Below are positions 3,912 to 59,281 of a stretch of 64,000 bases of DNA, piece after piece. The stretch covers positions 63,471 to 127,470 of the forward strand of contig UQWD01000002.1 in assembly GCA_900544555.1 (NCBI GenBank). Reading direction: 5' to 3'. The notes under the pieces were generated by a model that did not search any database, was not told where the DNA came from, and worked only from the letters and a program-made list of their open reading frames with translations. This stretch comes from an uncultured Eubacteriales bacterium. Its GTDB lineage: Bacteria; Bacillota; Clostridia; Christensenellales; CAG-138. Position 1 is the stretch's first letter; every line of letters begins with the position of its first letter. A program made the translations under genes and the position numbers.

Positions 3912-4370
3912 TTAGATGCGCTTAGCATATATTTCCGCATTTATATACCATTTGCCATCGTTTTTTACGGTAACATTTTGCCAGTGAAAATGATTATTCT
4001 CGATTTCGGCAAAAAACTACTTTCTTCTTTCATCATCAATGAACGTAAGAACTATGTTGTCATCTTGCTTATTTGCTTCAAGTCGTATTATTTTTCCTGC
4101 ATAACCATAAGCGACATCCCATGCGTGTGTATCAGGATTATAGATACGCAGTGATGTTCCATACTCATAATCGGGCAGGATAATAACATCCTGAATTGCC
4201 ATTCCTTCAAGAACCCATGAAAAATGCCATTCGCCTTTTATCACATGAGAGATGCTACTGTCCACATAGTCGATTTTCCAACTGCCGATAAGTTTCTCAA
4301 AATAATTAAATTCTTCAGGTATTGCTATGCTTTTTTTCGTGCTGTTTAGTGCTTCAAAAAAATCTTTCAT
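3912..4370 (-). pseudogene. Small beta-rich protein (DUF1579-like by my recollection) interrupted by an in-frame TAG
   Basis: 117-aa ORF 4017..4370 ends ...FIDDERRK-TAG. The same frame continues FFAEIENNHFHWQNVTVKNDGKWYINAEIYAKRI-TAA (3915..4016). GAGGGAG RBS and an extended -10 lie upstream. Confidence 0.5.
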
Positions 4371-4422: not shown

Positions 4423-5316
4423 CACATTTGCAGAATTTCTATTAACGGTTTTGGCGCAGCCATTTTATTAATCGGTAGAGGGTTTAGGACACTTCCCAGC
4501 AAGCTGTTTTTTTGAAATGTGGCCACACTTCCTATGCTTGATACGGAACTTTTAAATTTAAAATTGAAAAAATAGGTAAAAAAATTGTACGGATAGCGGC
4601 CTCTAATCATCGTATTCTTTTTGGCGCCCAAATGGGGTCCGACTATCCAAAACCACGCTGTAAAGATTTGTGGCGAGAAATAAGAAGATTTGCGAAATCT
4701 CTTGTTTTAAGCCGCTTTCAAGCACTTCCTACAAACACTTATAAAGTCTTATAAGATGTTTTGCGGCTCTAGAATCAATAAAAAATAGAAGCTTATTTAA
4801 TTGCCTGCTTGTGTGACATGGGTTACTGAACGCACCAAAAGAAAAAATGTAAGATTTATTACATACTTGAAGAACGGAACGATGCGTTGAATGTGAGATG
4901 CCGCAGGCGAAGCAGCGAGCGAGCCTGAGGGATTTTGCTCAAGCCGGATGTGACGGCTGCCGGATGACGCATATTTCAAGAAAGGTTCATCGCATGTAAT
5001 GCTTCGGGCGATCGGGCATGGCGCTCTTCCTGTTTTCGCTCGTGAACGCGTCTTGAGCAGACAAAGAGTACTCTTGAGGAACACGCTTCGTCAAGCGCGC
5101 GTGCGGTTAATCCTTAATACTTACCAATACGTCCCGGCGTCAATCCAGTTCATGCCTCCTGAACCCGGTATCAGGTATAACGCTTAAGTATCCGTTATGT
5201 AGTCTACGGCATTGCATTTTTATTGTTTGAGCGTATAGGCGCGCGGCGCTTTGGCCAAGATAGTTAAAGCCATAGCTTTGATTATATCCAAATTTTGTAT
5301 GAAAAGGAGACGAGAG

Positions 5317-5937
5317 ATGAAGAAGAAACCACTGATTGCTGTAATTGCTATTGTGACGGTTTGCCTGTTTGCGGCGGGAGGGACGCTGGCATGGCTGTTT
5401 GCCGTGTCGGGCCCGGTTGAGAACACGTTTACCGTGGGCGATATCAACATTGTATTAAACGAGGCGCTGGCGGATGAAAACGGGCAGGCCGTTCCTGACG
5501 CCGATCGCGTAACGGAAAACAGCTACCACATATATCCCGGCGCCCAGTTTGACAAGGATCCGATGGCGACTGTTCTTGAAGGAAGCGAGCCCTGCTACGT
5601 ATTCATTTGCGTGGATAACGGGCTGGTGCTTGCCGACGGAACAGAGGTGAGCGTGCTGGATATATATGACGATTGGGAGGCAATAGCCACAGATGGGAGC
5701 AAAACGCTTTATCTGTATGCGCCCGCTCAAGCCAGCGGCATTGTTAACGCAGCTGACGCCGACGTCGCCCTGCCGCCCATATTCACGCAGGTCCAAATCA
5801 GCGGCGAGCTGGTAACAAAGGAAAATATTAACGAGCTGAGCGGCAAAACCATTGTTGTTGACGCATACGCTCACCAGGCCGCCGGGCTTACCGGGGCCGA
5901 GGTTATTGCTGCGGCCGGGGAGCATTTCGGCTTTTAA
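5317..5937 (+). CDS. TasA/camelysin-like protein with SipW-type signal peptide (paralogue 1)
   Basis: ORF 5251..5937. ATG 5317 is preferred (AGGAGA 7 nt upstream). Leader MKKKPLIAVIAIVTVCLFAAGGTLAWLFA, then ENTFTVGDINIVLNE. C-terminal VDAYAHQAAG strand. Confidence 0.8.
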   Translation: MKKKPLIAVIAIVTVCLFAAGGTLAWLFAVSGPVENTFTVGDINIVLNEALADENGQAVPDADRVTENSYHIYPGAQFDKDPMATVLEGSEPCYVFICVDNGLVLADGTEVSVLDIYDDWEAIATDGSKTLYLYAPAQASGIVNAADADVALPPIFTQVQISGELVTKENINELSGKTIVVDAYAHQAAGLTGAEVIAAAGEHFGF

Positions 5938-6039
5938 CATTGCGCGCTTATTAAGCGACGTTTGAGCTTAAGCCGGAAGGTTGTTTGAAATGAAACTGCC
6001 CGGCGAAAAGATAATCAATCAATTTGGAGGTAATTACGT

Positions 6040-6654
6040 ATGAAAAAGAAGGTACTCACCATTGCCCTCTCGGTTGCACTCATTACCGCCGCCGTTACAG
6101 GCGCGACGCTTGCGTTTTTCACCGATGCGAAAACGGCTGAAAACACCTTTACCGTTGGGAATGTAGCAATAATTTTGGATGAAGCGCCGGTTGAGCGTAT
6201 CGCCGACGAATATGGCATTGCCGAATGGGTAACCGACGACGGGTCAGAACGCATCACGGCGAACACGTATGAAAAAGTATATCCCGGAGCTGTCCTGCCT
6301 AAAGATCCTATCGTTTGGAACACCGGCGCCAGCCCCGCCTATGTGCGCGTTAAGGTCGTTATCTTAAACGCCGCGCAGTGGGGCTTAGATGATGTCTCCG
6401 CAATCCTCAACGGACTTAATATGACGGATTGGACGCTGGACGGAACCCAATCGAGCGAAGGCGCCGTGACATTAACTTACAGCTACAATACTGTGCTTGC
6501 GGCTGGATCTGATACGGGCGCTTTATTTACGGCTGTGTCCATTCCCGACGAAGCCGAGGCGCTTGAGAACTTTAAAATCAACCTTATGGCTGAAGCGATT
6601 CAAGCCGAGGGCTTTGCGGACGCTGATGCGGCTTGGGCCGCGTTTGACGAGTAA
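6040..6654 (+). CDS. TasA/camelysin-like protein with SipW-type signal peptide (paralogue 2)
   Basis: GGAGG RBS. MKKKVLTIALSVALITAAVTGATLAFFTDAKTAENTFTVGNVAIILDE. C-terminal LMAEAIQAEG. Confidence 0.85.
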   Translation: MKKKVLTIALSVALITAAVTGATLAFFTDAKTAENTFTVGNVAIILDEAPVERIADEYGIAEWVTDDGSERITANTYEKVYPGAVLPKDPIVWNTGASPAYVRVKVVILNAAQWGLDDVSAILNGLNMTDWTLDGTQSSEGAVTLTYSYNTVLAAGSDTGALFTAVSIPDEAEALENFKINLMAEAIQAEGFADADAAWAAFDE

Positions 6655-6676
6655 AGAAGTCCAAACGCCGACATTT

Positions 6677-6726
6677 CCGAACCTCCGCGGAAGTTTCGTC
6701 GCCGGGGAGGTCCGGCTTTCGTTTAT
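6677..6726 (+). terminator. Terminator-like / attenuator hairpin after paralogue 2
   Basis: CCGAACCTCC (6677-6686) pairs with GGAGGTCCGG (6706-6715) with one mismatch, followed by CTTTCGTTTAT. A second hairpin ATAC(C)GGGG/CCCCGTAT follows at about 6724-6747. Confidence 0.35.
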
Positions 6727-6817
6727 ACCGGGGCGTTGACCCCGTATGAGTATGCAAACAATCCGCGGGAATTTGCGGTTATAATTACCTACTTTTACAG
6801 ATAGGCGGTGAAATTCA

Positions 6818-7366
6818 ATGAAGAAAAAGCTTTTAGTGGTCGCCCTGGCCGTCGCTTTCGCATCGATAGCGGCTTTGGGGTCGTTGGCCTATTTTACATC
6901 CAGCGGCAGCGCGCTTAACGTTATAACGGCGGGCAATATAAAGATTGAGCTGTTTGAAGATTTCCCAAGTGAGGGCATAACCGGCGTAATGCCCGGCACG
7001 GAAACGTTAAAAAAGGTGTACGTGAAAAATACAGGGGATAACGACGCGTGGATTCGCCTTAGCGTTGATACGCTTATCGAGCTGAATCCCGCTTATGCGG
7101 AGCCCGGGCAGGATGCGGACGCGGGACTGGTGGGCTTTGACGTGGATGAGGAGAACTGGCTCTATTCGGATGGCTTTTATTATTATAAATCGGCTCTGCC
7201 CGAGGGCGAGAGTACATCCCCGCTCTTTACAACAGTTAAGTTCAGCCCGGATATGGGCAACGCGTATATGGAATGCACGGTTAACGTTGATATAACGGCC
7301 GAGGCCGTGCAGGCTGCGAACAACGGAAACGAGGCGACGGAGGCTGCCGGCTGGCCGGCGCCCTGA
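6818..7366 (+). CDS. TasA/camelysin-like protein with SipW-type signal peptide (paralogue 3)
   Basis: MKKKLLVVALAVAFASIAALGSLAYFTSSGSALNVITAGNIKIELFE. KVYVKNTGDNDAWIRL beta-sandwich motif. C-terminal ITAEAVQAAN. Confidence 0.8.
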   Translation: MKKKLLVVALAVAFASIAALGSLAYFTSSGSALNVITAGNIKIELFEDFPSEGITGVMPGTETLKKVYVKNTGDNDAWIRLSVDTLIELNPAYAEPGQDADAGLVGFDVDEENWLYSDGFYYYKSALPEGESTSPLFTTVKFSPDMGNAYMECTVNVDITAEAVQAANNGNEATEAAGWPAP

Positions 7367-7383
7367 ATGGGAGGTTTATAAGC

Positions 7384-10119
7384 ATGAAAAAGAAACTTGG
7401 ATACAGGAGCGCCGCTGTTTTGTTAGGCGTTTGCATGCTGTTTGCCATCGCGACCCCGGTCAGCCTGGCGATAGCCATGAACGCGGCGGACGGCGCTCAA
7501 GCGCCTCAAGATGGCGATCAAAGCTTTGCTTTAGCGTCTCTTGACGAACAATATCAATGGCTTAAAGGGCTTGATTCCGAAGCTCAGATACAGGCGCTGC
7601 TCAATGAGCTCAGCCCTGAGCGGCTGGCGGAGCTGGAAGCTTATGCGCAACAGCTTGAAGGCTCTCAAGATCATGGCGTTGATGACGAGGCCGCGCCAGC
7701 CGCCCCTCCCGCGGCGGTGAACTTTACGGCGGCAGGCTCGCTGCTCTCGCCCATGGTTTTGCCTGGCGCTGATGAAGACGACAACGGGCTTATACTCAAT
7801 AAAACGGCCTTGCCGGACGGTAACGGCGGTTACGTTATAACCCTTGACGCCTTTACAACCGGTACGGTCACTACGGAAACTACCTCCCTGCCAACCGATG
7901 TTGTTTTGGTGCTGGATCAGTCAGGCTCAATGGCGTACGATTTTGGCAACACCACCAGGCAGGCGGCTATGAAGCAGGCGGTAACGGGTTTTATCAACAG
8001 CGTGGCGCAGAACGCCGGTGAAAACAAAGTAAACCACCATATCGGCATAGTTACCTACGGCTCCAGCTCAGCCACACTATCAGCGCTCAGGGACGTTAGC
8101 GTACAGGGAAACGCGCAGGCGCTCACACGTGCGGTGAACGACCTTCCAAGGTCGCCTTCCGGAGCTACCCGGATAGATTATGGCGTAAGCGCGGCTCAAA
8201 CGATGTTTCGCAACTTCGGTATTCCCGCGGAGGGCCGCAACCGGGTGGTTATCGTATTTACGGACGGTGTTCCGACGAGTTCCAGCGACTTTAGCACATC
8301 CGTTGCAAACAGCGCGCTGTCCACGGTAAAAGCGATGAAGTCGCAGGGGGTTACGGCTTTTTCCGTCGGTATTTTTGCCGGCGCGGACCCGGATCAGGTT
8401 CATGGGGAAAAGTATATCGAGTATTACCGTCATGGCTTTTGGGATTGGAGAGAGCGGGAAATCGTATGTACCGGCGATATAGGTAGCAAGTGGGGCTATG
8501 ACGACGGCGTAAGCTACGGCAGCCGGTTTGATGTGGACATTGCCGCGGCAAACCGATTTATGAACTATCTTTCCAGCAACTTCCCTAACGCGGGTTCGTT
8601 AGGAATCAATCACCTAACGGGATCACACAACGGCTACAGCATTACCTCAAACGCAACCCGCGCGTATGACAACTATTTCCTCACCGCGTCGGACAGCGAA
8701 TCGCTTAATAAAATTTTTGAGGAGATCTCAAACCAAATAGAAACGCCAAGCATTGAGCTTGACGGAAAAACCGTAATTCGGGATATCGTATCGCCTTATT
8801 TCACCCTGCCTGAGGGCGCTCAGGTCAGCCTTTACGAATCGGCTTACGACGGCAACTCGTTTGGCCCGCGCCTGAACACGACAGCGTCTTATCAGGTAGT
8901 GAACGGCAACACGATTGAGATAAAGGACTTTAACTTTAACGCGAACTTCGTATCGGAAAACATAAAAGAGGATGGGACATACGGTAAAAAGCTAATCGTT
9001 GAGTTTACCGTCAACCCGCGGGCGGGCTTATTCGGCGGGGCTGAGGTTCCGACGAACGGCAGAGATTCCGGCGTGTACTCCGGCGGCGAGTTGATAGAGA
9101 GCTTCCCAATTCCTACGGTTGACGTTCCAATCCGGTATGGAATATCCGCGCAGGATCAATCCGTTTTTCTGACCCAATCGGCTGATTTGGAGCAGATATT
9201 GCAATATTCCGCCGCGTTCAGGCCGAACGGAGAGAACAACGCTTATGTTACCATTGCGTATACGCTGCGCCGCGGGCAGGATGTGGTAGGAGTTTACACC
9301 ATCCCTGCAGGCCGCGCCTCGGGAAGCTGGGATGTTTCCGCTGATGAATTGAGCGTGCTAATTGAGGAGGATACGGTCTACACGCTTGAATGCGAGGTAA
9401 CAAGCGGGGACCTTACGCCATGGACAGGCTCCGAAGAAGCAACGGTTCATGTGTTTAAACCGGAGGTTACGTTTGTCGACAGCGTAATATATTATGGACA
9501 AGTTCCGAATTACGCGGATAACTTGCTGAGCGAGAATTGGGTATGCTGCTCCGCGAATGTGGAGAAGCCCGCCGGTACCGCTCCGGATCTTACCTATGCG
9601 TATGACCCGCAGCCGAAGCTGATGCTAACGGATACGCACGTGGGCGTGCAGGTTTTGTGCGGCAACGTCGATATTACGCGTCAAACCGTGATAAGCAACG
9701 ACAGGGAGGGCTGTACGCATGAGGGCTGCTCATTCGACAGCGAGCTCGGCGCGTTCATGGTACATGTCAAAACCTGCTCTCTGACCGTTACGAAAACCGG
9801 AGCAAGCGCGGCCGACGCGGGACAGAGCTTCATAATGCGGGTGCGCGGCGTGAGTGATACGAACAACGGCGTCGATCTGACCGTAGCTGTTCAAGGCAGC
9901 GGTTCCGTAACCATAGAGGGGCTTCCCACAGGCAAATACGTTGTAGAGGAAGATGAAGGCTGGTCTTGGCGTTACAGCGCGGCAGCGGCCGAAGCCGTGC
10001 TGACAGACGAGGAGCCTCAAGGTTCCGTAACGGTATCCAATACGCGCGTATTTACGCGCTGGTTAGATGGAAACAGCTGGCTTAACAACCTCTTCGGATG
10101 GTTAAGCAAGGAGGGATAA
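7384..10119 (+). CDS. Secreted von Willebrand factor A (vWA) domain protein, 911 aa, putative adhesin
   Basis: GGGAGG RBS and a signal peptide. MIDAS DVVLVLDQSGSM (D-x-S-x-S at 7914-7928), plus VVIVFTDGVPT and VTAFSVGIFAG. C-terminal CSLTVTKTG...IEGLPTGKYVVEEDEGWSWRY resembles Cna-B/prealbumin-type stalk domains. Confidence 0.85.
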   Translation: MKKKLGYRSAAVLLGVCMLFAIATPVSLAIAMNAADGAQAPQDGDQSFALASLDEQYQWLKGLDSEAQIQALLNELSPERLAELEAYAQQLEGSQDHGVDDEAAPAAPPAAVNFTAAGSLLSPMVLPGADEDDNGLILNKTALPDGNGGYVITLDAFTTGTVTTETTSLPTDVVLVLDQSGSMAYDFGNTTRQAAMKQAVTGFINSVAQNAGENKVNHHIGIVTYGSSSATLSALRDVSVQGNAQALTRAVNDLPRSPSGATRIDYGVSAAQTMFRNFGIPAEGRNRVVIVFTDGVPTSSSDFSTSVANSALSTVKAMKSQGVTAFSVGIFAGADPDQVHGEKYIEYYRHGFWDWREREIVCTGDIGSKWGYDDGVSYGSRFDVDIAAANRFMNYLSSNFPNAGSLGINHLTGSHNGYSITSNATRAYDNYFLTASDSESLNKIFEEISNQIETPSIELDGKTVIRDIVSPYFTLPEGAQVSLYESAYDGNSFGPRLNTTASYQVVNGNTIEIKDFNFNANFVSENIKEDGTYGKKLIVEFTVNPRAGLFGGAEVPTNGRDSGVYSGGELIESFPIPTVDVPIRYGISAQDQSVFLTQSADLEQILQYSAAFRPNGENNAYVTIAYTLRRGQDVVGVYTIPAGRASGSWDVSADELSVLIEEDTVYTLECEVTSGDLTPWTGSEEATVHVFKPEVTFVDSVIYYGQVPNYADNLLSENWVCCSANVEKPAGTAPDLTYAYDPQPKLMLTDTHVGVQVLCGNVDITRQTVISNDREGCTHEGCSFDSELGAFMVHVKTCSLTVTKTGASAADAGQSFIMRVRGVSDTNNGVDLTVAVQGSGSVTIEGLPTGKYVVEEDEGWSWRYSAAAAEAVLTDEEPQGSVTVSNTRVFTRWLDGNSWLNNLFGWLSKEG

Positions 10120-10122
10120 TGT

Positions 10123-10704
10123 ATGTTTAAGGATAAACGCGGAGCAACGCCAAGGGCGCAAAGGAAAGCGCTACCGTTGATTATCATTGTCGCGGGCTGC
10201 ATGCTGCTCGCCTGTACCGTAGGCGGCGCGCTGGCTTGGCTGACTACCGGCGCCGCGCTAAATAATGATTTTGGCGTTAAAGAAGTGAACTGTGCGGTAA
10301 CGGAGGGCGCTTTTAGCCAAGGCGAGAGCTTGGAGAAAACAGACGTCGCGGTTCGTAATACCGGAACGATGGATGCGTATATCCGAGTAGCGTTAATTCC
10401 GGCGGTTAAGATTGGCCAAAGCGTTTTAGCAAGCGATGTTGCCCTTGAGGATTTTACGATTGAATGGGGCGACATGACAGGCGACTGGCTCGCGGGTGAG
10501 GACGGTTACTATTATTGCAGGCTGCCTGTCGCGCCAAATGATTCGACGCCCGTGCTGATAACGCGCTGCGTTGCGCCGGAGCCGCCTGAGGGCAGACAGC
10601 TCGAGCTGCAAATTATCGCCTCCGCCATACAGGCGCTGCCTAAAGAAGCCGTTGAAGGTTCGTGGGGCGTTACGGTTAACGGCGATGGAACCATTACCAG
10701 GTAG
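10123..10704 (+). CDS. TasA/camelysin-like protein with SipW-type signal peptide (paralogue 4)
   Basis: AAGGAGGG RBS, with ATG 3 nt after the vWA stop. Leader ...LPLIIIVAGCMLLACTVGGALAWLTTGAALNNDFGV. DVAVRNTGTMDAYIRV. C-terminal IIASAIQALP. Confidence 0.75.
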   Translation: MFKDKRGATPRAQRKALPLIIIVAGCMLLACTVGGALAWLTTGAALNNDFGVKEVNCAVTEGAFSQGESLEKTDVAVRNTGTMDAYIRVALIPAVKIGQSVLASDVALEDFTIEWGDMTGDWLAGEDGYYYCRLPVAPNDSTPVLITRCVAPEPPEGRQLELQIIASAIQALPKEAVEGSWGVTVNGDGTITR

Positions 10705-10719
10705 AAAGGAGGAGCCGCA

Positions 10720-11364
10720 ATGAGAATTAAACGATTTATAAGGGCTTGCGCCGTGATGATGGCTGCGGCCGCCTGCCTCTTTACCGCAGGCGCTTTTGCG
10801 GAGGGATCCCAGATAAATTACGAGGGCGGCGCGGAGGGCTTCATATTCGTGCCTGAAAACGCCGACCTTTTCCAGAGCTTTAAAGGCGTTATGCCGGGGG
10901 ATGAGCTCGTCGAGCAAATTACGGTTAAAAACGACGCTTCTAAAGAGGTTAAGGTGAACCTTTATTTAAGCGCGCGGACTGTTGACGAAAAATACAAGGA
11001 TTTTCTTAATCAGTTTACCCTAACCGTTAAACAAGGCGACAGGACCCTGTTCCTCGCGCCCGCGGGCGAGCAGGAGGGCCTTAGCCAAAGCGTGCTGTTG
11101 GGAACCTTTTATTCCGGGGCCCAGACCCAGCTGGAGGTTACGCTTCATGCGCCTGTGACCATGGAAAATGAATACCAGAACAGCCTTGGCGTGATTGAAT
11201 GGGTATTTACAGCTGAGGAGATGCCGGTATCCCCGGACGACCCTTCCCCGCCTTCATCCGGCGGCCCGGAATATGCGGCTTACGCGTTTTGCGCTTTGGG
11301 CTTAGCGCTTATTGTTAGCGCCGCCCTAATCGGTCGCAAGAGGAAAGGCCGGATTTACGAGTAA
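10720..11364 (+). CDS. Secreted beta-sandwich protein with C-terminal transmembrane anchor
   Basis: AAGGAGGAG RBS. Classical signal peptide ...AGAFA/EGS. ITVKNDASKEVKVNLYL motif. Pro/Ser linker, then PSSGGPEYAAYAFCALGLALIVSAALIGRKRKGRIYE. Confidence 0.75.
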   Translation: MRIKRFIRACAVMMAAAACLFTAGAFAEGSQINYEGGAEGFIFVPENADLFQSFKGVMPGDELVEQITVKNDASKEVKVNLYLSARTVDEKYKDFLNQFTLTVKQGDRTLFLAPAGEQEGLSQSVLLGTFYSGAQTQLEVTLHAPVTMENEYQNSLGVIEWVFTAEEMPVSPDDPSPPSSGGPEYAAYAFCALGLALIVSAALIGRKRKGRIYE

Positions 11365-11387
11365 TCTAAGAGCATAAATCAACTTGC

Positions 11388-11422
11388 GGCAGAGGCTGTT
11401 TATTCAGCTTCTGCCATTTTTT
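11388..11422 (+). terminator. Rho-independent terminator closing the TasA-like/vWA operon
   Basis: GGCAGAGGCTG / CAGCTTCTGCC stem followed by ATTTTTT. Confidence 0.8.
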
Positions 11423-12142: not shown

Positions 12143-13951
12143 ATGAAAAAAATGATTAAATCAGCCGCGCTGGCGCTCGCGCTTTTAACGCTGCTTTTGT
12201 TCGCCGGGTGCTGCGTTCCCGGCAAGCCCGGGTCCACCCCCGGTTCTACGCCTGAGCCGCAGCCTGTTCATTCACCCGAACCGGGAAGCGCGCGGAGCCT
12301 GTTTGCCGAACTGGATTGGCAGATATTCGCCGATTCGGTAACTGAAAACGCGCTCACGTTCAGGCTCAGCGTCGGTTCGCCGGAGGCGTTAGGCCTTGAG
12401 TATCCGGAAAACACATGGGGCGACTTTTCTAAACAGGCCAATGACTTAGGCATAGCAAAATGCAACGAGTATCTAACAAAGCTTAATCAGATAGACAGGG
12501 AGCAGCTTTCTTACCAAGAAAAATTCTCGTACGACGTAATCCGCCAATACCTCGACGGATGCGTCGCCATGGGCGATTATTACTACTATTATGAACCGCT
12601 GACATCCCTGAATGGGGCGCATTCCTCTTTACCAATGAATCTCATGTTCTTCCCAATACAAAACGAGGGCGATTTGGATAGCTATCTGGAACTTTTATCC
12701 GATACGCCGCGTTATATCGGCCAGATCCTGGAGTTCGAGCGTGAGAAATCCGAAAAGGGCTTGTTTATGACGGAGGCGGCCTGTGAGACAGTAATCGAGC
12801 AATGCGATGATTTTATCGATAGCGGAGAAGGCTGTTTTTTAATCGCGACTTTTAACGACGCGCTCGCGGATGTCGAGGGCCTTTCCCCAGAACAGATTGC
12901 GGCTTATCAGGAGCGCAACGCAAAACTCGTAACCGTCGATTTGATAGACGCGTATAAGGAGTTGCGGGATGGCCTAGTTAAGCTCAAATCCACGGGTACC
13001 CGCGACAGGGGCATATCTACGTACGGCGATACGGACAAAAGGTATTTTGAGCTGCTTGTAAAGGAAGCGGCCAGCTCGGATATCACGATTGAAGAAGCGT
13101 ATAATATGCTTTACACGCGCATTATAAAGGAGTTTACATCGTTGGCGGGCGTCATGGCCGCTGATCCGAGCCTAGCGGGCCGATATGGCCAGACAGAACT
13201 GAGCCTGGGCTCTGTTGAGGAGAACATGGCTTACCTCAAAGAGCTTATCGCGGACGCTTATCCTTCCATACCCGAACACAACATAACCTATACGGATGTG
13301 CCTGAGGAACTGGAGGAGCAGTTCAGCCCTGCGGCTTACCTTATTCCGCCTGTGGACAGCGCGGTCGATAACCTGATTATTTTAAATGGAAAAAGCGTCG
13401 GGGAAAGCACGGATTTAATCTCAACGCTCGCGCATGAGGGCTATCCGGGGCATATGTACCAATATATCTATCAGCGCAACCTGCCCGGCTTAAGCTATAC
13501 CCAGCGCTCGCTCGGCCTTACCGCGTATTATGAGGGGTGGTCTACGCACTCTGAAAGCCATTTTGCAGCCAATAACGATAAATTCGATAACCGCTATTGT
13601 ATCATGATGTTCACGGATACCATGATCAGCGGAATACTCCTGCCCGCCGCCGTCAGTATCGGCGTAAACGGGAAGGGCTGGTCGGTTGAGGATGTTGAAG
13701 AATTCCTCTACGCCTTGGGTCTGGACGGTAACGGGCTTGACAGCGTTTACTACGATTACGCCATAACCGATCCAGACTATTTTCTTGAATACGCGATGGG
13801 ATATACCCAGCTTGAAAATCTTATTGACGGCGTAAAGAAAGACGCGAAGGATATGGAGCCTAAAGAATTCTTTAAATTCTACCTCGATTTGGGGCCGGGA
13901 TACTATAACCTCATTGAGGACAGGGTGAATGATTGGATGGCCGCGCGTTAA
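12143..13951 (+). CDS. DUF885 family lipoprotein (metallopeptidase-like)
   Basis: AAGGAGGA RBS. Lipoprotein-type leader ...LLLFAGC. HEGYPGHMYQ motif characteristic of DUF885. 602 aa. Confidence 0.8.
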   Translation: MKKMIKSAALALALLTLLLFAGCCVPGKPGSTPGSTPEPQPVHSPEPGSARSLFAELDWQIFADSVTENALTFRLSVGSPEALGLEYPENTWGDFSKQANDLGIAKCNEYLTKLNQIDREQLSYQEKFSYDVIRQYLDGCVAMGDYYYYYEPLTSLNGAHSSLPMNLMFFPIQNEGDLDSYLELLSDTPRYIGQILEFEREKSEKGLFMTEAACETVIEQCDDFIDSGEGCFLIATFNDALADVEGLSPEQIAAYQERNAKLVTVDLIDAYKELRDGLVKLKSTGTRDRGISTYGDTDKRYFELLVKEAASSDITIEEAYNMLYTRIIKEFTSLAGVMAADPSLAGRYGQTELSLGSVEENMAYLKELIADAYPSIPEHNITYTDVPEELEEQFSPAAYLIPPVDSAVDNLIILNGKSVGESTDLISTLAHEGYPGHMYQYIYQRNLPGLSYTQRSLGLTAYYEGWSTHSESHFAANNDKFDNRYCIMMFTDTMISGILLPAAVSIGVNGKGWSVEDVEEFLYALGLDGNGLDSVYYDYAITDPDYFLEYAMGYTQLENLIDGVKKDAKDMEPKEFFKFYLDLGPGYYNLIEDRVNDWMAAR

Positions 13952-51133: not shown

Positions 51134-51658
51134 CTAGCCCGCCAGATATTTGGGCTTTATTCCAACACGTCTAAAAACAATAAACAGAACCGTAGCGTCC
51201 ACCGCGGCCATGCCAAGCGCCATTGGAGCGCGTATTATGAAAAGCTCCCAGAAAGCGCCGCCCCCGTTGATGACGGTGATGCAGAACGTCGTCCAGAACA
51301 TGTTAGAAACGATATAACACACAAGCGTCATAATACCTACGCGGGGCCAGCTGATTTTTTGGAGCAGCATTTTTTTAAAGAACCAGGGCATAACGCCCAT
51401 AAGAATCGGCGAAATAGTGAAGATGGGCATGTAAGCGCCTTGTATAGGGAAAAGCACCGTACCGAGAAAATCCGACGCGAACCCGATAACGGCCCCGGCA
51501 AGGGGGCCGAACCAAACGCCGGACAGCAATATGGGGATATTGCCTAACGTAAAGCGCAGGCTTGTGCCGATTGGAAGGACAAGCAAGCGGGTGAAGACAA
51601 TGCTCAGGGCGACGAACACGCCCATGAGCGCTAAAGAAGCGATATTCCGTTTATTCAT
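51134..51658 (-). CDS. folT: ECF transporter S component, folate-specific (FolT family)
   Basis: ORF 51134..51685. ATG 51658 is preferred (GGAGGAGGAAAAATG). About 6 TM segments. It lies directly behind a THF riboswitch. Confidence 0.8.
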   Translation of the reverse strand: MNKRNIASLALMGVFVALSIVFTRLLVLPIGTSLRFTLGNIPILLSGVWFGPLAGAVIGFASDFLGTVLFPIQGAYMPIFTISPILMGVMPWFFKKMLLQKISWPRVGIMTLVCYIVSNMFWTTFCITVINGGGAFWELFIIRAPMALGMAAVDATVLFIVFRRVGIKPKYLAG

Positions 51659-51825
51659 TTTTCCTCCTCCTCTCCCGTATACCACACTAAAGAGGAGGTT
51701 CCAAGACTCTCTTCAATGGGGTAGCGGATGCAGCGCCTTACCGCAACCCGCATCCTGTGCGGGTTTTCGTGCAAGGGCAACTTCCCATCCCCTGCCACTT
51801 AACGCGCGGCGCCTACTCTACCATG
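51659..51825 (-). promoter_or_regulatory. THF (tetrahydrofolate) riboswitch with SD-sequestering expression platform
   Basis: Minus-strand RNA: GGUAGAGUAGGCGCCGCGCGUUAAGUGGCAGGGGAUGGGAAGUUGCCCUUGCACGAAAACCCGCACAGGAUGCGGGUUGCGGUAAGGCGCUGCAUCCGCUACC. It matches the known THF aptamer block by block (AGAGUAG, GCGUUAAGUG, AUGGGA, ACGAA, GCGGU, UGCAUCCGCU). Downstream CCUCCUCU (51691-51698) can pair with the SD AGAGGAGG. Confidence 0.9.
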
Positions 51826-52929: not shown

Positions 52930-54179
52930 AATATGCTGCTCTCCTCAATGAGCCGCGCGTACGCGCAGCCGATTCTTTCTTGGAGCGCCGGGTTTAGGGG
53001 GAGCGCCTCCACTTCCAGCCCCATAGCCGATTCGCGGTTGCGGCAGCCCATATACGCGCCGCCAAGCGGAACCGCGCTGTCCTGCCACCTTCCGCTTAAC
53101 AGCCTTAAAATCCCTATGCACGCCGAGGAAACGCCCGGCGCGAGATACGGCTTAAACCCCGTTTCCCGAACGCGCAAGTTCGCCTCAACCGTGTATTTCG
53201 TCAACAAGTCCGACCGCGCTCCGTCATAGCCGTCCCCGGTATCGTTGGCGATTACAAGCCCGCCGCCATGCGGACCGTACGCCCGGCCGCGCGCGGCAAA
53301 GTCCGGGCATAACCCGCTCTTATCCCCCCAATATGCCGCCCGCGCGCTCATCACGCCGAGGCCGAACCCCCGAATCTGCTCAGGGCGTAGGCCGAGATAA
53401 TCCATATTCCCGTTCTCATCGCGGTTGCTGTATACAAATACGCACCGGCACAACAGGTCGACCGGGTCCGACACCTGAGCAAACAGACCTTTAAACCCCT
53501 TTTCCCTCGCCATTCGCGCATAGGGCGCGATGATTTCCATATTGGATTTAAGCTGAGCCATGCGAACATCGAGATCCCCGCCGCCCGGCTCGGGTACGCC
53601 GCGCGAGGCCGCGAACGCGAATACGTCGCAATCGAAAAGACAGTCCGTCTCTACAATCCTCACCTGCGGCACTCTTGCATTGGGTTCGAGAGGGAGCATC
53701 TGGTTGATCTCCTGCTCGTACCGCTCGGCAAGCGTTCTGTTCGGATCGTAGATCCCGATCTCGCTGATTAGGCCGCCCCCCAGCAGCCTGAGCCCCATGA
53801 GCATAGCCCCGCCGACGTCTCCCAGCCCGGCGAGGTTTATACGCGCCTGCGCTGGCCGCAAGGGCGGGGCGAGCAGATCCTCGTATCCGGGCCAGGCGGC
53901 GTTTACCGCGCGCGCACCGCCGTTTAAAATGATATCTTGAAGCTCGCGCGGCGCGCCGGACTCATACGCAGTATCCAGGCTGAGCGCGTGCGTATCCTCT
54001 GGCCCTAAGGCCTGCTTAAGCGTACGCGGGGAAAACGCCGCGCGCGCGTTGAGAGGATCCCGATTGAGCAGGAACACCAGCGGGGCAAAGGGCGCCGCTA
54101 CCCGCCGCGCGCCCGCCGGAGGCTCCGCCTCAACCGGGCAAACAGAGAGCTTCCCGTGCCTGTAAAACTCCAGCCTCAC
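52926..54179 (-). CDS. Lactate/malate dehydrogenase-family NAD-dependent oxidoreductase with about 110-aa N-terminal extension
   Basis: 417 aa. Rossmann INLAGLGDVGGAMLMG plus IGIYD. QVSDPVDLL (like VSNPVD). MSARAAY and YGPHGGG (like GEHGDS). The GTG start overlaps the upstream TGA (GTGA). Confidence 0.75.
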   Translation of the reverse strand: MRLEFYRHGKLSVCPVEAEPPAGARRVAAPFAPLVFLLNRDPLNARAAFSPRTLKQALGPEDTHALSLDTAYESGAPRELQDIILNGGARAVNAAWPGYEDLLAPPLRPAQARINLAGLGDVGGAMLMGLRLLGGGLISEIGIYDPNRTLAERYEQEINQMLPLEPNARVPQVRIVETDCLFDCDVFAFAASRGVPEPGGGDLDVRMAQLKSNMEIIAPYARMAREKGFKGLFAQVSDPVDLLCRCVFVYSNRDENGNMDYLGLRPEQIRGFGLGVMSARAAYWGDKSGLCPDFAARGRAYGPHGGGLVIANDTGDGYDGARSDLLTKYTVEANLRVRETGFKPYLAPGVSSACIGILRLLSGRWQDSAVPLGGAYMGCRNRESAMGLEVEALPLNPALQERIGCAYARLIEESSIL

Positions 54180-57100
54180 TCGATCACCGCCTTCATGCGC
54201 AAAAGCGCCTCCATATCATTTCTTATATAGCTTGACGCGGGCAGGCTGTAATCATACTGCATAGCCCCCCCCTTATCGGGGCGGCGGGGCCAAAGCAGCG
54301 CTTCGCCCAGGCGCCCCAGCGTCAGGCTTTGCTCAAACATCGCCTGGTGTTCCTGTTCAAGCGCCTGAAGAATGTCGTAAGCGTTCTCCAGAGCCGTATA
54401 CGAAAGCGCGAAAATGCTCCGCCTTTCCGCCTCACAAATAAACGGCGGTGCCGCGTACGGCAGAACCATGTTGACCGACGGCGGCAGGTATCCGCCCCGC
54501 CGCGCCCCCCTGTCCACGCTGTCACCGCCTATAAACGGGTAGAGCATGCTTTCGGTAAACCAGTGCCGCAGGTTGGGTATGAAGTATACGCATTGGGCGT
54601 CCCTGCCCTGCACGCGCATCAGATCCCTGCCTCTCCCCGAAAGGATACCGGCAAAAATCCTGCGTATTTCCACGCCCTCTTCCCGAAAGATGGGGTCGAG
54701 CGCTTCAATCCTGTACCCTTTATGGAGCAGATCGTCCACAAGCAGCACGGGCCGGCGGAATGATCGCAGCGTGCGCACCTGATTGGACAGCGGCGAATAC
54801 CCGGGGTATTCGGTTATGGAAAAGCTCTTTAGATCCGGCGCGTAGGTCTTTTCAGCATGGAGCGTCTTGGTCACCGTGTTGGGAATGACCGAATCCGATA
54901 ATATCCGTCCGTAAGGGACGCACATATTACCGGCCAGCCGCCGCCCGCCCGAGGCGCCGGGGGCTCCGTTAAAGCGGATGATCTCGCTGGTAAGCTCATG
55001 ATCAAGCATATCCGCGTCAAACGAAAGCGTGAGCGTCCCTGGATACAGCCCGGTCATCGCCTCTTCCAGCCGGCTTCTCGACCGTTCAATGGCCTCCGCT
55101 ACCTTTTTGGCGCTCCTGTGAGGCTCCTTAACGGCTTGAGCCACGTCTTCAATCAATACGATGGGGAAGCGCATATCGACGTACATCACCCCGTCCTCAC
55201 CTCCGGGAATATCCCGAAAGCCCTTGCGCTTAAAAAGTGCGCGCGCGGGATCCTCCGCGCCCTGCGCGCGGTATAGAGCATAGGTGTTGTCCTCGCCCAG
55301 CGCGTCGGCCAGCGCCTTATTGAGCAGCATCTGCTTGATCCGTTCCTCCCGGGCGTAGACCCCGTCAATGACCAGCACTCGCCCGGAGGTGTGCCCGCGG
55401 ATGTATTGCGCCGAATCCATGCTTCGCGTTTCATCGTACATGCCCGCGGCGTTGGTGCTGTGGAAGCATACCCCGCCAAGCGGGGACGGCTCGCCTTCAC
55501 GATAAAGGGCCACCGCCTGCACGCCCGGCCTGTTCAGGCGCGCGGCGGCCTCGCCGCCGCTGAGCCCCGAATCCAGCGCGAGCCGCGCAAACTCGCCTGT
55601 GAGATGCTCGTTTAACGAAACATGCCGTCGATACTCCAGCGTATCCAGGCGCAAAACGGTTTTATACTGGGGCGCGCGCAGGTACAGGCCGTTGATGTAC
55701 ACATACTCCTGCACCAGAGGATCCACGAGCATGGAAATATCCAGATCCTTATCTATATACTCGCGTATGCGCGATGAGCTAACGTCCTCCAGATAGACCG
55801 GCAGCGAAAGGCGTATTATCCTGCCCATAACCTTTTCCTTAGCGAGGCCCGTCTCCCCCTCATCCTCGCCGCCGCTTCGCGCGAATACAATGTGGCCGAA
55901 ATGATGTATGGAATCGGGCGTGGGAGCGGCCCGGTAGGCGGAAGCGTTTTCAATCACGTCGCTCCCCGTCACAATATATACTTCGCGGTTAGCAAACAGC
56001 TCCCTCAGCGCCTTTAAATCCTCGGGAGCGGCCAGATTTACAGGCCTGTCGTCCGGGAACAGAAAAACATCCGGCGCGTCCGCCACGCTCATGTTGACTA
56101 TTCCTCGCCGCACAAGCTTGGGCTGCGTCCGTTTGCTCCATGAAAATTCATCCACCGCAAGATAAACCTCCATACCCAGATTGCGTATTTCATCCACAAT
56201 ACCCCTGTGCCCCGTCGAAAACGGATCGAAGGTTCCGGGGAAAAACGCGGCGTCAGGCTGGGGAGCGAACTTTATCGGGCCAAAACGCGCGTTCGCGTCG
56301 GTTATAAAACGGTACAGATGATTGAGCATCGCGGCGGTATTAAAAAACATCAGCCTTCCACCGCTCTGCTCATGGATAAGCGTGAGGAGCTTCTTGTGAA
56401 TTTTCTTAAACAGCCGGAGCTTCTTCGCAAACCCCATATCCTCGCTTCCAAACAGCCCTCGCCCTATTACCTGCAGCGCCTCCTGCCGAACGCCTTCCGC
56501 ATAATGGGTCAGCCCCAAAAGCAGCAGCCCGGCGGCGCGCATGCGCCTGCTCTCAACCGTGCCGGCCGGTTCCCCGGCGTTTTGCGCATAGGTATCATAA
56601 TGCGCCAGCAGCACGCCGAGTGTATGGAGCGTCATGCACGCGGCGCGTTCATTGGCGGATTTGATATGCCGTTCAAAATCGTCGAGCACCTCGTCAAGCT
56701 CCTTATGCGGGAGGAAAAGCGCCAGCCGGCCAAGGCAGGGCGGTATGTACCGGGAAAACTCATAGCGGGCCGTTTCAAGACCCCTCGTAAGCTCAACGGC
56801 TATTTCGTTGCACTGATCGACCGAGAGCATCGGCGCAATGGTGATAAGCGCGTCGCCGGCATGCTCTCTCACCGTCAGGTGCTCGCTTACGCGTACGAGA
56901 TTGGACAGGTGCGTCGCCACATGGAAAGCCTGCGCGGCGTCGCTCCTCGTCAGCTCCGTAAGCCAATCGATATTCGTCACCTTCATTATCCAGGGCGTCG
57001 CGGATTTGAGGTTTTCAAGAAAGAGCTCAGACGGCTCCTGCTTCTCAAGCCGGCCGGAATACTTCTTAACTAGCTCCGTACCGCCTGCGAGCCGCAGCGC

Positions 57101-58996
57101 CTTGTTCAATAAATAGATAACCGTGATATCCGCCGTTTCGTCAATTGCAGCTGCGGCGCTCAGCGCCGCTTCGTTCCATGGCCCCTCGCGCCCGTCCATG
57201 ACCCTTATCATGAATCTGAGCGCGCACGACTGAAGCCTTCTCTCCCCGCTATCTAAAAGGCGGGCGCAATACCCTATGAGCATAGCGATTTCCTCATCGC
57301 TAAGCAGGCCAAGCTCAATGCCGAAAAGCGTATCGACCAGCGCGAAGCGATCCTCCAAAGCGGGGTTTTCTTCGCGAAAACGCGCAAGTAGCGGATCGAG
57401 ATAGACCCGCGCGCCGTCCCGAGCGCAATTAGCCAGTACGGCCTTGGCCACCACCTTTAACGAGCCAGTTACCCTTGAACGGTGTTTAGGTGAAATCTTG
57501 TGATCCGGGTGCAATATCAGTTCCAGGTATTCTTCAAACAGGGCCGCGCGTTCATTCAGGCTCTCCTCAAGGGCCGGGGGGATAGCGGAGGCCGGGGCGT
57601 GAGCTGGCAGCTCCTTACGGTACTGCGCTGCGCTGTTTGCCAGTATAGCGCCCATCAGCCTGCCCGCCTTGCGCCTGATATCCCCTTCCGGGTGCATCAA
57701 AAGCTCGTATAAAAAGCGGAGCGTCATAACTTTTTGGCGCCGGGTCATATAAGTGAAATACTCCTCGAATATATTCAGGTATGTGCGGATGTGGCTCCGG
57801 TTCCGCTCGCCCCTCGCGTGCTCAAGCAGATCCCCGAACGATTCTTCCGAGCTTATGGAGCGCATCAGCCTGAGGTTATGCTCCACAGTCAAGCGCTTAA
57901 GCGCCCTTACCGCGCCTTCGGGAGATAAAAGAGCGGGAGCCGCTTGAAACGCCGGCACGGGCGTTTCGTCCCACGGATCCGTATTCACGCCTTTGGAGAC
58001 AAGGTAATCCTCAAAATCCTTGAGCTTTAGGTAAACGCGCTCGTAACGATCCCGTTTTGTCTCATCCACGTTATCAAGCTTTCCGAGTATCACGTCATAG
58101 GATTCTGCAAGCGAAAAGATTCTCGTCCGCTCGAAACCGGTTTCGTCTCTGGCGCTTTTTACCCGGAAATCGGCGTAGATGAGCAGCAGCGACTCAACGG
58201 GAAGGTTTTCAAGCTCAAGATCCCAGGTGGAATGATTGGCCGAGATATGCGCAATATCCGGCGCCCCCTCCCTGCGCAGCCATTGATCCGTATAAAAATA
58301 ATGCAGGTAGGGTATGCGGCGCGTGTCCACGCCCCGGCAGCCGAATTTGCCGATATCATGCGCGGCCGCGGCCGCGCTTACAAGGGGCAGATCGACGGCT
58401 ATCCCCGCCATATTCGCCTGTTTCGCCGCATGCATCGCCATATGATGGACGCACGCCGTATGCGAAAGCGCGTCGAACGGGCGAAGCTCCCGGCTCAGGC
58501 GGAACATTTCCAGCACGTACAGCCTGTCCATAGCGTCAAGGAAACGTTCATACTGCTCAGTTACCCGGCTGTTTGTGCATTCCTCCGGCGTTAGAAGGGC
58601 CATATCCGTAAAGGGGTTAAACCCTCTCGCGGCCTTTTCCTCATTTAGCGCGCGGCGCAGGCAGCGCAAGGCGAAACAAAACGCGCGCTCATGCTCCTTG
58701 TCGCGCGGCGGCCTTCCCTCCTCAGGGAAGACGCCGTGAAGAAGCTCCCCGTAGATATATTCCGCCCAGCCCTCCTCCGGCTCGGGGCAGATTTCCGCCA
58801 TTACGGGGATGCAGGCCGCAAGCACCTTCATACAGGAAACCGGCTGCTCCAGCGCCGCCTCCATACCCACGCGGAACCCCAGCTCCTCGAGAATTGCTTT
58901 CATAACGCGCTTGGGCATATTTTCGTCCAAAGCGCATTGGGCGTAAAGCTCCTCCGCCAACGCGCGGTAAAAATCCTGAAAAGCTCTTTTGCGCAT
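54176..58996 (-). CDS. Giant multidomain protein: HD phosphohydrolase + helical repeats + NadD-like nucleotidyltransferase + GNAT-like + PRTase-like
   Basis: ORF 54176..59008. ATG 58996 is preferred (GGGAGG RBS). Motifs: HTACVHH...AAHDIGKFG...IYADF (HD). FPGTFDPFSTGH and VSSSRIREY (HxGH / ISSTxxR nucleotidyltransferase). ALFKRKGFRDI (GNAT-like). RPVLLVDDLLHKGYR (PRPP-loop-like). Confidence 0.8.
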   Translation of the reverse strand: MRKRAFQDFYRALAEELYAQCALDENMPKRVMKAILEELGFRVGMEAALEQPVSCMKVLAACIPVMAEICPEPEEGWAEYIYGELLHGVFPEEGRPPRDKEHERAFCFALRCLRRALNEEKAARGFNPFTDMALLTPEECTNSRVTEQYERFLDAMDRLYVLEMFRLSRELRPFDALSHTACVHHMAMHAAKQANMAGIAVDLPLVSAAAAAHDIGKFGCRGVDTRRIPYLHYFYTDQWLRREGAPDIAHISANHSTWDLELENLPVESLLLIYADFRVKSARDETGFERTRIFSLAESYDVILGKLDNVDETKRDRYERVYLKLKDFEDYLVSKGVNTDPWDETPVPAFQAAPALLSPEGAVRALKRLTVEHNLRLMRSISSEESFGDLLEHARGERNRSHIRTYLNIFEEYFTYMTRRQKVMTLRFLYELLMHPEGDIRRKAGRLMGAILANSAAQYRKELPAHAPASAIPPALEESLNERAALFEEYLELILHPDHKISPKHRSRVTGSLKVVAKAVLANCARDGARVYLDPLLARFREENPALEDRFALVDTLFGIELGLLSDEEIAMLIGYCARLLDSGERRLQSCALRFMIRVMDGREGPWNEAALSAAAAIDETADITVIYLLNKALRLAGGTELVKKYSGRLEKQEPSELFLENLKSATPWIMKVTNIDWLTELTRSDAAQAFHVATHLSNLVRVSEHLTVREHAGDALITIAPMLSVDQCNEIAVELTRGLETARYEFSRYIPPCLGRLALFLPHKELDEVLDDFERHIKSANERAACMTLHTLGVLLAHYDTYAQNAGEPAGTVESRRMRAAGLLLLGLTHYAEGVRQEALQVIGRGLFGSEDMGFAKKLRLFKKIHKKLLTLIHEQSGGRLMFFNTAAMLNHLYRFITDANARFGPIKFAPQPDAAFFPGTFDPFSTGHRGIVDEIRNLGMEVYLAVDEFSWSKRTQPKLVRRGIVNMSVADAPDVFLFPDDRPVNLAAPEDLKALRELFANREVYIVTGSDVIENASAYRAAPTPDSIHHFGHIVFARSGGEDEGETGLAKEKVMGRIIRLSLPVYLEDVSSSRIREYIDKDLDISMLVDPLVQEYVYINGLYLRAPQYKTVLRLDTLEYRRHVSLNEHLTGEFARLALDSGLSGGEAAARLNRPGVQAVALYREGEPSPLGGVCFHSTNAAGMYDETRSMDSAQYIRGHTSGRVLVIDGVYAREERIKQMLLNKALADALGEDNTYALYRAQGAEDPARALFKRKGFRDIPGGEDGVMYVDMRFPIVLIEDVAQAVKEPHRSAKKVAEAIERSRSRLEEAMTGLYPGTLTLSFDADMLDHELTSEIIRFNGAPGASGGRRLAGNMCVPYGRILSDSVIPNTVTKTLHAEKTYAPDLKSFSITEYPGYSPLSNQVRTLRSFRRPVLLVDDLLHKGYRIEALDPIFREEGVEIRRIFAGILSGRGRDLMRVQGRDAQCVYFIPNLRHWFTESMLYPFIGGDSVDRGARRGGYLPPSVNMVLPYAAPPFICEAERRSIFALSYTALENAYDILQALEQEHQAMFEQSLTLGRLGEALLWPRRPDKGGAMQYDYSLPASSYIRNDMEALLRMKAVIE

Positions 58997-59281
58997 ATAA
59001 CCTCCCAATAAATCCGTCTGGCTTTATTATACCGCGCGGCGGCGCTCCATGCCATCTAAAAGCGCTGTCAATACGTTTCTGGAACGCTGCAACTCGTGCT
59101 GAGCACATATTACATTATCAGCCTGGCTGGTTTGGCGTGCGTTTAGCATAAACTCCATAAACAGCCTGCTTTAATTGTTAAAGAGACGAAAATAATAGCA
59201 TCTTAAAAAAAATGATGCTATACTAAATTGAATAAATTGTAGATATAATGTGTCAATTATGTAAAGGGGGAATGATACTTA

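Follow-up and report, generated by a model that had tools for sequence, protein, structure and literature searches.

This study concerns an operon of six genes, g1 through g6, in a 64-kb stretch of contig UQWD01000002.1 from an uncultured Eubacteriales bacterium (the window, by which we mean this whole stretch). A first-pass annotation made from the letters alone had read four of the gene products as paralogues of TasA and camelysin, and had joined them with a vWA protein and an anchored beta-sandwich protein into a candidate surface fiber. From the evidence presented below, the locus probably encodes a cell-anchored, heteropolymeric fiber of the TasA/BsaA type. According to the list of open reading frames (ORFs), all six genes exist at the starts that had been claimed, co-directionally on the + strand between positions 5317 and 11364 (Table 1), with successive gaps of 102, 163, 17, 3 and 15 nucleotides.

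Ribosome binding sites of the GGAGG type had been assigned to every gene, and clear Shine-Dalgarno sequences do precede five of them (AAGGAGA, GGAGG, GGGAGG, AAGGAGGG and AAGGAGGAG), whereas that of g3 is weaker (GGCGGTG). The claim of a strong closing terminator is upheld by an 11-base-pair stem with seven G-C pairs and a 6-nucleotide loop, followed by a T-run (11388-11415), which ranks best in the region. Hairpins located after g2 (6701-6716) were considered as an internal terminator, but these are no more stable than shuffled sequence (z = -0.5), and the idea of differential expression was dropped. Approximately 65 nucleotides immediately upstream of the g1 ATG are, as read from the sequences, almost identical between the window and L010, a related locus of ~83% identity, compared with 77-89% nucleotide identity in the coding regions of the two. 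No Rfam family, riboswitch or other, matched the sequence 5′ of the operon, and no repeats or mobile-element ends were found to flank it.

Table 1. Features of the g1-g6 operon, with positions counted from the first letter of the window.
Feature	Positions	Strand	Description
Putative promoter-proximal region	5250..5316	+	Conserved upstream leader and g1 ribosome binding site; near-identity to L010
g1	5317..5937	+	t1-type TasA-like pilin, 206 amino acids, SipW-type leader; candidate shaft subunit
g2	6040..6654	+	t2-type TasA-like pilin, 204 amino acids; candidate shaft subunit
g3	6818..7366	+	t3-type TasA-like minor pilin, 182 amino acids; directly 5′ of the adhesin gene
g4	7384..10119	+	vWA adhesin, 911 amino acids
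g5	10123..10704	+	t5-type TasA-like minor pilin, 193 amino acids; between adhesin and base
g6	10720..11364	+	Base subunit, 214 amino acids; distant TasA-like domain, Sec signal peptide, transmembrane anchor
Intrinsic terminator closing the operon	11388..11422	+	Hairpin and T-run

Pilins, adhesin and base

The proteins encoded by g1, g2, g3 and g5 carry the leader motifs GGTLAWLFA, GATLAFFTD, LGSLAYFTS and GGALAWLTT and also share C-terminal AxAxQA strands. Every one of these motifs was found as the first-pass annotation had described, with the C-terminal set listed there in a different gene order from the leaders. BLASTP links g1 with g2 (2e-19), g2 with g3 (4e-17), g3 with g5 (2e-9) and g1 with g5 (1e-6). 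When deep alignments of the pilins are compared by hhalign, probabilities of 99-100% are obtained, and the t3 and t5 alignments match at 99.8% probability (pilins from related loci are typed t1, t2, t3 or t5 by the window paralogue that they match best). Judged by their sequences, the four proteins are true paralogues whose similarity exceeds chance.

The proposal that these paralogues belong with TasA and camelysin and carry SipW-type leaders was examined by searches with profile hidden Markov models (HMMs), and it held. Against the Peptidase_M73 family (PF12389), g2 scores 24.7 bits where the gathering score is 22.5, with a match limited to residues 1-51, while g3 reaches 14.4 bits and g1 and g5 yield no hit. 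The model for the SipW-dependent-type signal peptide (TIGR04088, cognate_SipW; cutoff 19) is passed by g2 (33.5) and g3 (19.2). The scores of g1 (10.9) and g5 (sub-threshold) are low, but both proteins keep the motif G-x-[TA]-L-A-[WFY]. All scores against the BsaA family (TIGR04090) fall below its cutoff of 60, with 57.1 for g3, 24.1 for g5 and 23.2 for g2. A profile built from the four paralogues retrieves 1920 proteins, most of which bear PF12389, and the few that bear names are annotated as ‘TasA family protein’ or ‘SipW-dependent-type signal peptide-containing protein’. By these profile relationships, g1, g2, g3 and g5 are members of the TasA/camelysin superfamily. A metalloprotease role of the kind once assigned to camelysin was set aside because, according to the literature, that peptidase assignment is likely to be a misidentification (PMC11580942).

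An AlphaFold2 model of g2 is a confident beta-sandwich with a predicted local distance difference test score (pLDDT) of 84, in which residues 26-43, the presumed donor strand, are unstructured. The same behavior is described for BsaA monomers (Kivimaki et al., PMC11580942). The predicted fold is compatible with membership in the TasA/camelysin superfamily without independently confirming it. For g1, the mature N-terminus is predicted to be WLFAVSGPVENTF. Three residues are each conserved at ~90% in all four pilin types, namely a donor-strand Asn, a Glu at a strand end and a Lys that follows a PG motif, and these might form an isopeptide like that of BsaA. This Lys is present in TasA as well. 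The isopeptide triad of BsaA consists of N35, E56 and K74 (N-E-K). TasA forms no isopeptide (PMC11580942). The donor strand of g5 also contains a Cys (V.C.V.E) that is conserved in ~80% of t5-type pilins. It is plausible that g1 and g2 serve as major subunits and g3 and g5 as minor subunits.

The fourth gene encodes the vWA protein, for which public gene calls place the start at 7420 and thus give a length of 899 amino acids. The PF00092 (vWA) match has a value of 3e-18, and the AlphaFold2 model (pLDDT 82) arranges the protein as a Sec signal peptide, a helical domain (47-94), a disordered linker, the vWA domain (136-460), four beta-sandwiches (464-888) and a disordered tail of 20 residues. 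Residues D178, S180, S182, T262 and D294 of the metal ion-dependent adhesion site are intact, and they are invariant in 83 homologues. When the model is compared with the PDB by Foldseek, the top matches are the tip adhesins SpaC (6M3Y, 5.7e-25), PitA (7W6B), RrgA (2WW8) and GBS104 (3TXA). The protein has neither an LPXTG motif nor a transmembrane tail. Its modeled structure is therefore like that of SpaC, and g4 appears to be a tip-adhesin-like vWA protein.

More than 2900 hits were obtained for full-length homologues of g4, at ~40% identity across 88-98% of the length. The adhesins of relatives have heads of 700-2374 amino acids with vWA or MucBP/Flg_new domains and end in a soluble tail. 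This disordered C-terminal tail, which in g4 is WLDGNSWLNNLF, is conserved despite the unrelated heads. Many of the tails in relatives, but not that of the window’s g4, contain a Cys (WLDGDSWCNNIF), which together with the Cys of t5-type pilins is a possible clue to a disulfide or to pairing. A second conserved segment of g4, PAAVNFTAAGSLLSPMVL (7708-7764, residues 109-127), is disordered in the model and has the family consensus TVxFTxAGPFxPPVxV. It resembles a pilin donor strand and is confined to a subset of the vWA-headed adhesins (9 of 65).

The sixth product had been described as an anchored beta-sandwich protein, and although the anchor is borne out, the description can be refined. Searches of Pfam and NCBIfam with g6 return no family match. 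However, when 83 g6 homologues are aligned by hhalign against 83 t3-type pilins, the two profiles match across 112 columns with a probability of 97.7% (E 2e-12). Because of this profile-profile match, we consider g6 to be a fifth, distant TasA-like domain. The protein has a Sec signal peptide with an ordinary AxA signal peptidase site, and its C-terminus runs from a Pro-rich stalk through PPSSGG into a transmembrane helix and the basic tail RKRKGR. The g6 family comprises 1484 clusters at 50% identity (E <= 1e-3), whose members are labeled ‘hypothetical’ or occasionally ‘LPXTG-motif cell wall-anchored protein’ in the sources, and no plasmid-borne homologue was found.

Conservation of the operon and the distinct features of the window copy

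A scan of one genome per species with the g6 alignment yielded 448 loci, of which the best 80 were fetched and examined by classifying their ORFs with purpose-built HMMs. These loci derive from Oscillospiraceae, Acutalibacteraceae, Faecousia, Ruminococcaceae, Lachnospiraceae, Solibaculum intestinale, Hespellia stercorisuis and many metagenome-assembled genomes of Clostridia. Their gene order is nearly invariant, and consists of sipW, t1 (often duplicated), t2, t3, the adhesin, t5, the base and, in some cases, a sortase. Complete operons have two to five pilin genes before the adhesin gene, mostly three. The t1 gene is the first pilin gene after sipW, t3 stands directly before the adhesin gene, and t5 lies between the adhesin and base genes. 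Every locus retains a base protein that has the stalk, the transmembrane helix and the basic tail. The reading of the six genes as a unit with an adhesin and an anchored base therefore extends to the 80 loci, and by this comparison the operon type is widespread in gut Clostridia. Among the variants encountered are L049, in which the sortase gene precedes sipW, L088, which has two copies of sipW, and L076, which has nine pilin genes and in which an adhesin was not detected.

Two features of these relatives are directly relevant to the window. The first is sipW, whose products match the archaeal-type signal peptidase I model (TIGR02228, cutoff 52) at 84-92 bits, and which is the first gene in 47 of the 49 loci with enough upstream sequence; the two exceptions are the window and one contig that is probably truncated. 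The second is the C-terminus of the base, where PxTG, mostly in the form PPxTG[DE], precedes the transmembrane helix and basic tail in 76 of 84 proteins. Of 72 loci, 18 have a sortase gene no more than 2 kb downstream, and its product matches the class B model (TIGR03064, cutoff 154) at 163 bits. The first-pass description of a ‘non-sortase fiber’ thus does not apply to the family as a whole. In about a quarter of the related operons, L011, L013, L015, L020, L022, L023, L094 and others among them, the gene for the class B sortase comes immediately after that for the base.

The absence of signal peptidase and sortase genes that had been noted for the window was corroborated. No signal peptidase or sortase gene was found in the 64 kb by tblastn with three SipW proteins of relatives, by HMM searches or by six-frame motif scans, and a further 4 kb upstream in the public contig likewise held no SipW, sortase, signal peptidase I box or remnant. 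At the protein level, no sipW remnant is present upstream of g1. The upstream sequence devoid of sipW spans 5.2 kb in the window, but only ~0.4 kb is available for L010. With regard to the sorting motif, PPSSGG (a Thr-to-Ser change) occurs among base proteins only in the window and L010, such that g6 has this sequence in place of the xPxTG of class B sortase substrates, while the transmembrane helix and basic tail are present.

In the two nearest outgroup operons, whose bases share 49-54% identity with g6, sipW is the first gene and the sorting motif reads DPDTGD or IPKTGD. Because both outgroups have sipW and xPxTG-type motifs, we conclude that the missing sipW and the PPSSGG sequence are recent, lineage-specific differences. 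The view that a locus without sipW represents a different kind of system is accordingly replaced by that of a lineage-specific loss from the operon head.

The ratio of nonsynonymous to synonymous substitution rates (dN/dS) between the window and L010 is 0.19-0.24 across the six genes, with a value of 0.19 for g1, and the SipW-type leader and donor-strand residues are conserved between the two. Identical or near-identical operon proteins are found on 19-40 contigs from many samples. Since all six genes are under purifying selection by this measure, we consider the operon to be functional and not decaying.

The window leaders retain aromatic residues at P1′/P2′, and LepB, the general signal peptidase I of Escherichia coli, is reported to cleave the TasA site with its aromatic P2′ poorly (PMC10269814). 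The simplest explanation is that SipW is presumably encoded elsewhere in the genome and acts in trans. A 376-amino-acid secreted protein without a family match is encoded 2.3 kb 5′ of the operon (1863-2993, +), and it ends in SAPNTG, a hydrophobic helix and RKKRAR, which is a canonical (S/P)PxTG-type sortase signal. The presence of this signal suggests that a sortase recognizing xPxTG exists elsewhere in the genome of this organism, and for this reason the Thr-to-Ser change in g6 looks meaningful. With its sorting motif degraded to PPSSGG, g6 is probably retained in the membrane. In C. perfringens HN13, BsaA oligomers are membrane-anchored (PMC11580942).

A proposed fiber and competing explanations

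Fibers of TasA assemble by donor-strand exchange of the N-terminal strand (PMC9674648), and TapA works through strand complementation (PMC10151520). BsaA depends on SipW and polymerizes by itself into very stable oligomers that are possibly locked by Asn-Lys isopeptide bonds (PMC7395162, PMC11580942). By analogy with TasA and BsaA, we propose that g1, g2, g3 and g5 would be exported via their SipW-type leaders, and that, once cut behind the conserved L-A, they would present a donor strand ([WFY][LF]...N-x-F-x-x-G) at the N-terminus for insertion into the beta-sandwich of a neighboring subunit. The shaft would be built of g1 and g2, while g3 and g5, whose genes flank the adhesin gene, may act as position-specific minor subunits. 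The adhesin g4 would form the tip, with its C-terminal tail mimicking a mature pilin N-terminus and filling the distal pilin's groove. Strand donation by the pilins would run toward the cell, and the last strand would fill g6, a putative cell-proximal base that has a groove, stalk, transmembrane helix and basic tail but no donor-strand motif, and that would consequently act only as an acceptor. In relatives, SipW comes from the first gene and the base is a substrate of class B sortase through its xPxTG motif. In the window lineage, from whose operon sipW is gone, SipW would be supplied from elsewhere, and a base with PPSSGG would be kept in the membrane.

The role proposed for the adhesin tail comes from its distribution and from a motif comparison. 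The predicted mature N-terminus of the pilins was described by the regular expression [WFY][LIVF]x[GDSTNA]x(4-7)Nx[FYILV], and the last 40 amino acids of each adhesin were taken as its tail. The motif is found at the N-termini of 74 of 78 t1, 47 of 50 t2, 58 of 83 t3 and 61 of 72 t5 pilins, and in 51 of 65 adhesin tails, compared with one of 83 base proteins and a background of 0.02-0.04 per 40 residues. In the window itself, the tail of g4 reads WLDGNSWLNNLF and the N-terminus of g5, to which it can be compared, reads WLTTGAALNNDF. Because the tail is conserved across heads and is disordered in the monomer model, these observations suggest that it imitates a donor strand within the groove of a pilin, and that the adhesin thereby forms the tip.

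Several observations weigh against this proposal. The curated cutoffs of PF12389 and TIGR04088 are not reached by g1 and g5 individually. Foldseek matches of the g2 model in the PDB are weak (E >= 2e-3) and consist of cohesins and integrin beta-sandwiches, with AbpA (7UEG) only at rank 22 (0.012) and TasA absent. When a 117-sequence profile was run against 177,635 PDB sequences, AbpX and TasA (8AUR) came first, but with E of 0.1-0.2, and the shallow four-sequence profile gave only a chance hit. The regular expression for the donor motif, which gives by far the clearer contrast, was written post hoc, after inspection of the sequences, and an unbiased donor-strand HMM gives negligible scores and only a modest enrichment in the tail, where its best hit lies for 7-9 of ~40 adhesins. 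The status of SipW and sortase is established for the 64-kb window and the 4 kb upstream, and supply from elsewhere is presumed. Finally, donor-strand exchange, subunit order and polarity are inferred.

An alternative explanation is that the operon produces a released scaffold of the biofilm matrix rather than a cell-anchored adhesive pilus, and that the vWA protein is secreted independently. There is precedent for this arrangement, in that BsaA polymers are mainly extracellular and BsaC is free and secreted (PMC7395162, PMC11580942), and the base encoded in the window lacks a canonical sortase motif. However, an anchored base is present in every locus examined, usually with PxTG, the adhesin resembles the tip adhesins of pili, and the occurrence of one type of tail on heads of such different sizes argues for attachment to a fiber. 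We therefore consider a released scaffold unlikely.

It is also conceivable that no SipW is encoded in this genome, and that the four pilins remain uncleaved, anchored in the membrane by their N-termini and assembled with g4 and g6 into a surface complex that is not a polymer. This would agree with the lack of sipW in the window and the adjoining 4 kb, and with the poor performance of LepB on the TasA site (PMC10269814), given that the leaders here are also aromatic at P1′/P2′. Yet the leader and donor-strand residues have been conserved between the window and L010 at a dN/dS of ~0.2, and as both nearest outgroup operons possess sipW, a trans-acting copy is the simpler solution. On balance, uncleaved pilins seem distinctly improbable.

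A third possibility, that the operon survives only as a remnant in decay, its functions in processing and anchoring already lost, could be entertained because sipW and the Thr of the sorting motif, which are near-universal in relatives, are both gone, but six intact ORFs with such low dN/dS at ~15-25% nucleotide divergence, and the recurrence of the same proteins in many samples, make this very hard to accept. Least credible of all is a classical pilus whose pilins are covalently joined by a pilin-specific sortase, which the fold similarity of the adhesin to SpaC, RrgA and PitA and the frequent sortase gene of relatives might suggest, since sorting signals are confined to the base, LPXTG motifs and transmembrane tails are absent from the pilins and the adhesin, the sortase of relatives is of class B and not class C, and the pilins are TasA-like and not CnaA/CnaB-like.

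Surroundings of the operon, known systems and significance

Several other features of the window were recorded. The organism belongs to the Clostridia, and the cluster at 90% identity into which its ribosomal protein L2 falls has a member with the label Christensenellales. A lipoprotein gene of the DUF885 type with the motif HEGYPGH (12143-13951, +) lies ~0.7 kb 3′ of the operon in both the window and public contigs; it is absent beside related operons, and is probably unrelated to the fiber operon. On the other side, contigs of several independent Logan assemblies start or stop at ~4207-4236, within an ORF on the - strand (4017-4370), and overlap there by ~30 base pairs. These ends suggest a branch in the assembly graph, due to a repeat or a strain-variable junction, in a region that is AT-rich (GC 36-44%). 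Farther away, a tetrahydrofolate riboswitch (RF01831, 72 bits; 51720-51822, -) is located 5′ of a membrane protein gene (51134-51685), and the minus strand nearby encodes, by reading of the translations, a bifunctional methylenetetrahydrofolate dehydrogenase/cyclohydrolase-like and a folylpolyglutamate synthase-like protein. An ORF of 1610 amino acids (54176-59008, -) is found beyond this region of ribosomal and folate genes.

The first-pass annotation knew of no characterized arrangement of several TasA-like pilins with a vWA protein, but one precedes it. The bsa operon of C. perfringens comprises sipW, bsaA, bsaB and the vWA gene bsaC, with srtB adjacent (Obana 2020, PMC7395162; PMC11580942), and most strains have two bsaB-like genes, one of them with an LPXTG motif, with a class B sortase gene near (PMC7395162, PMC11580942). 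A 2025 preprint by Kivimaki and Melville reports that BsaA/TasA genes are often part of putative operons that also encode LPxTG, fibronectin, SpaA and choice-of-anchor A proteins, signal peptidases and sortases, and notes that the presence of several paralogues per operon suggests heteropolymers (PMC11580942). The bsa operon and that of the window have in common several TasA-like paralogues with SipW leaders and a large secreted vWA protein. They differ in that the window has four pilins in fixed positions and a dedicated base as the last structural gene, and an adhesin that resembles SpaC, in which four stalk domains are followed by the conserved tail. In addition, the window copy has neither sipW nor a two-component regulator in cis, and the sorting motif of its base is degenerate.

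The B. subtilis tapA-sipW-tasA and B. cereus sipW-tasA-calY systems share with the window the Peptidase_M73/TasA fold family, the SipW-dependent leader and the donor-strand N-terminus (PMC9674648), as well as an accessory protein that nucleates or anchors the fiber (TapA, PMC10151520). However, these Bacillus systems consist of one subunit or two, they lack both a vWA adhesin and an anchor of the sortase type, and their operons always include sipW. Moreover, TapA donates a strand, whereas g6, which has no donor motif, is proposed to accept one. Sortase-built pili (SpaCBA of L. rhamnosus GG, RrgABC of S. pneumoniae, PitA) follow the same logic of tip adhesin, shaft and wall-anchored base. In contrast to these, the shaft in the window is TasA-like, g1 through g5 are without sorting signals and there is no class C sortase, such that polymerization would presumably depend on strand exchange, either non-covalent or locked by isopeptides, and not on transpeptidation. 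Archaeal bundling pili and AbpX/cannulae (PMC9245690, PMC12518558) likewise consist of TasA-like subunits joined by donor-strand complementation, but they are homopolymers that have no adhesin or base subunit.

Three aspects of the operon family appear undescribed. One is its fixed architecture of seven or eight genes, in which a SpaC-like adhesin is bracketed by two dedicated minor pilins and a TasA-like base is anchored by sortase. The second is its breadth across gut Clostridia, and the third is the shared tail motif. The window copy is a derived variant of this architecture. We tentatively raise the possibility, about which we are more doubtful than about the fiber itself, that the family constitutes a third architectural class of Gram-positive adhesive pilus that is common in gut Clostridia, with a shaft of SipW-processed TasA-like subunits linked through donor-strand exchange, a SpaC-like tip attached not by a sortase but by a C-terminal tail that imitates the N-terminus of a mature pilin, and a TasA-like, acceptor-only base that is the sole sortase substrate. 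If this proves to be true, the window lineage would show that SipW in trans and a membrane anchor in place of the cell-wall anchor can suffice.

Fibers of TasA and BsaA have so far been regarded as biofilm-matrix scaffolds of Bacillus and C. perfringens. The recurrence of the gene order described here across hundreds of species of gut Clostridia suggests that an adhesive organelle, as yet untouched by experiment, is widespread among commensals such as Oscillospiraceae, Acutalibacteraceae and Christensenellales-like organisms, which could use it to bind to their host or to mucus. The tail motif of the adhesins would provide a concrete rule for loading a non-pilin protein onto a donor-strand fiber. 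The window copy offers a natural variant with which to ask whether SipW is needed in cis and whether cell-wall anchoring is needed at all.

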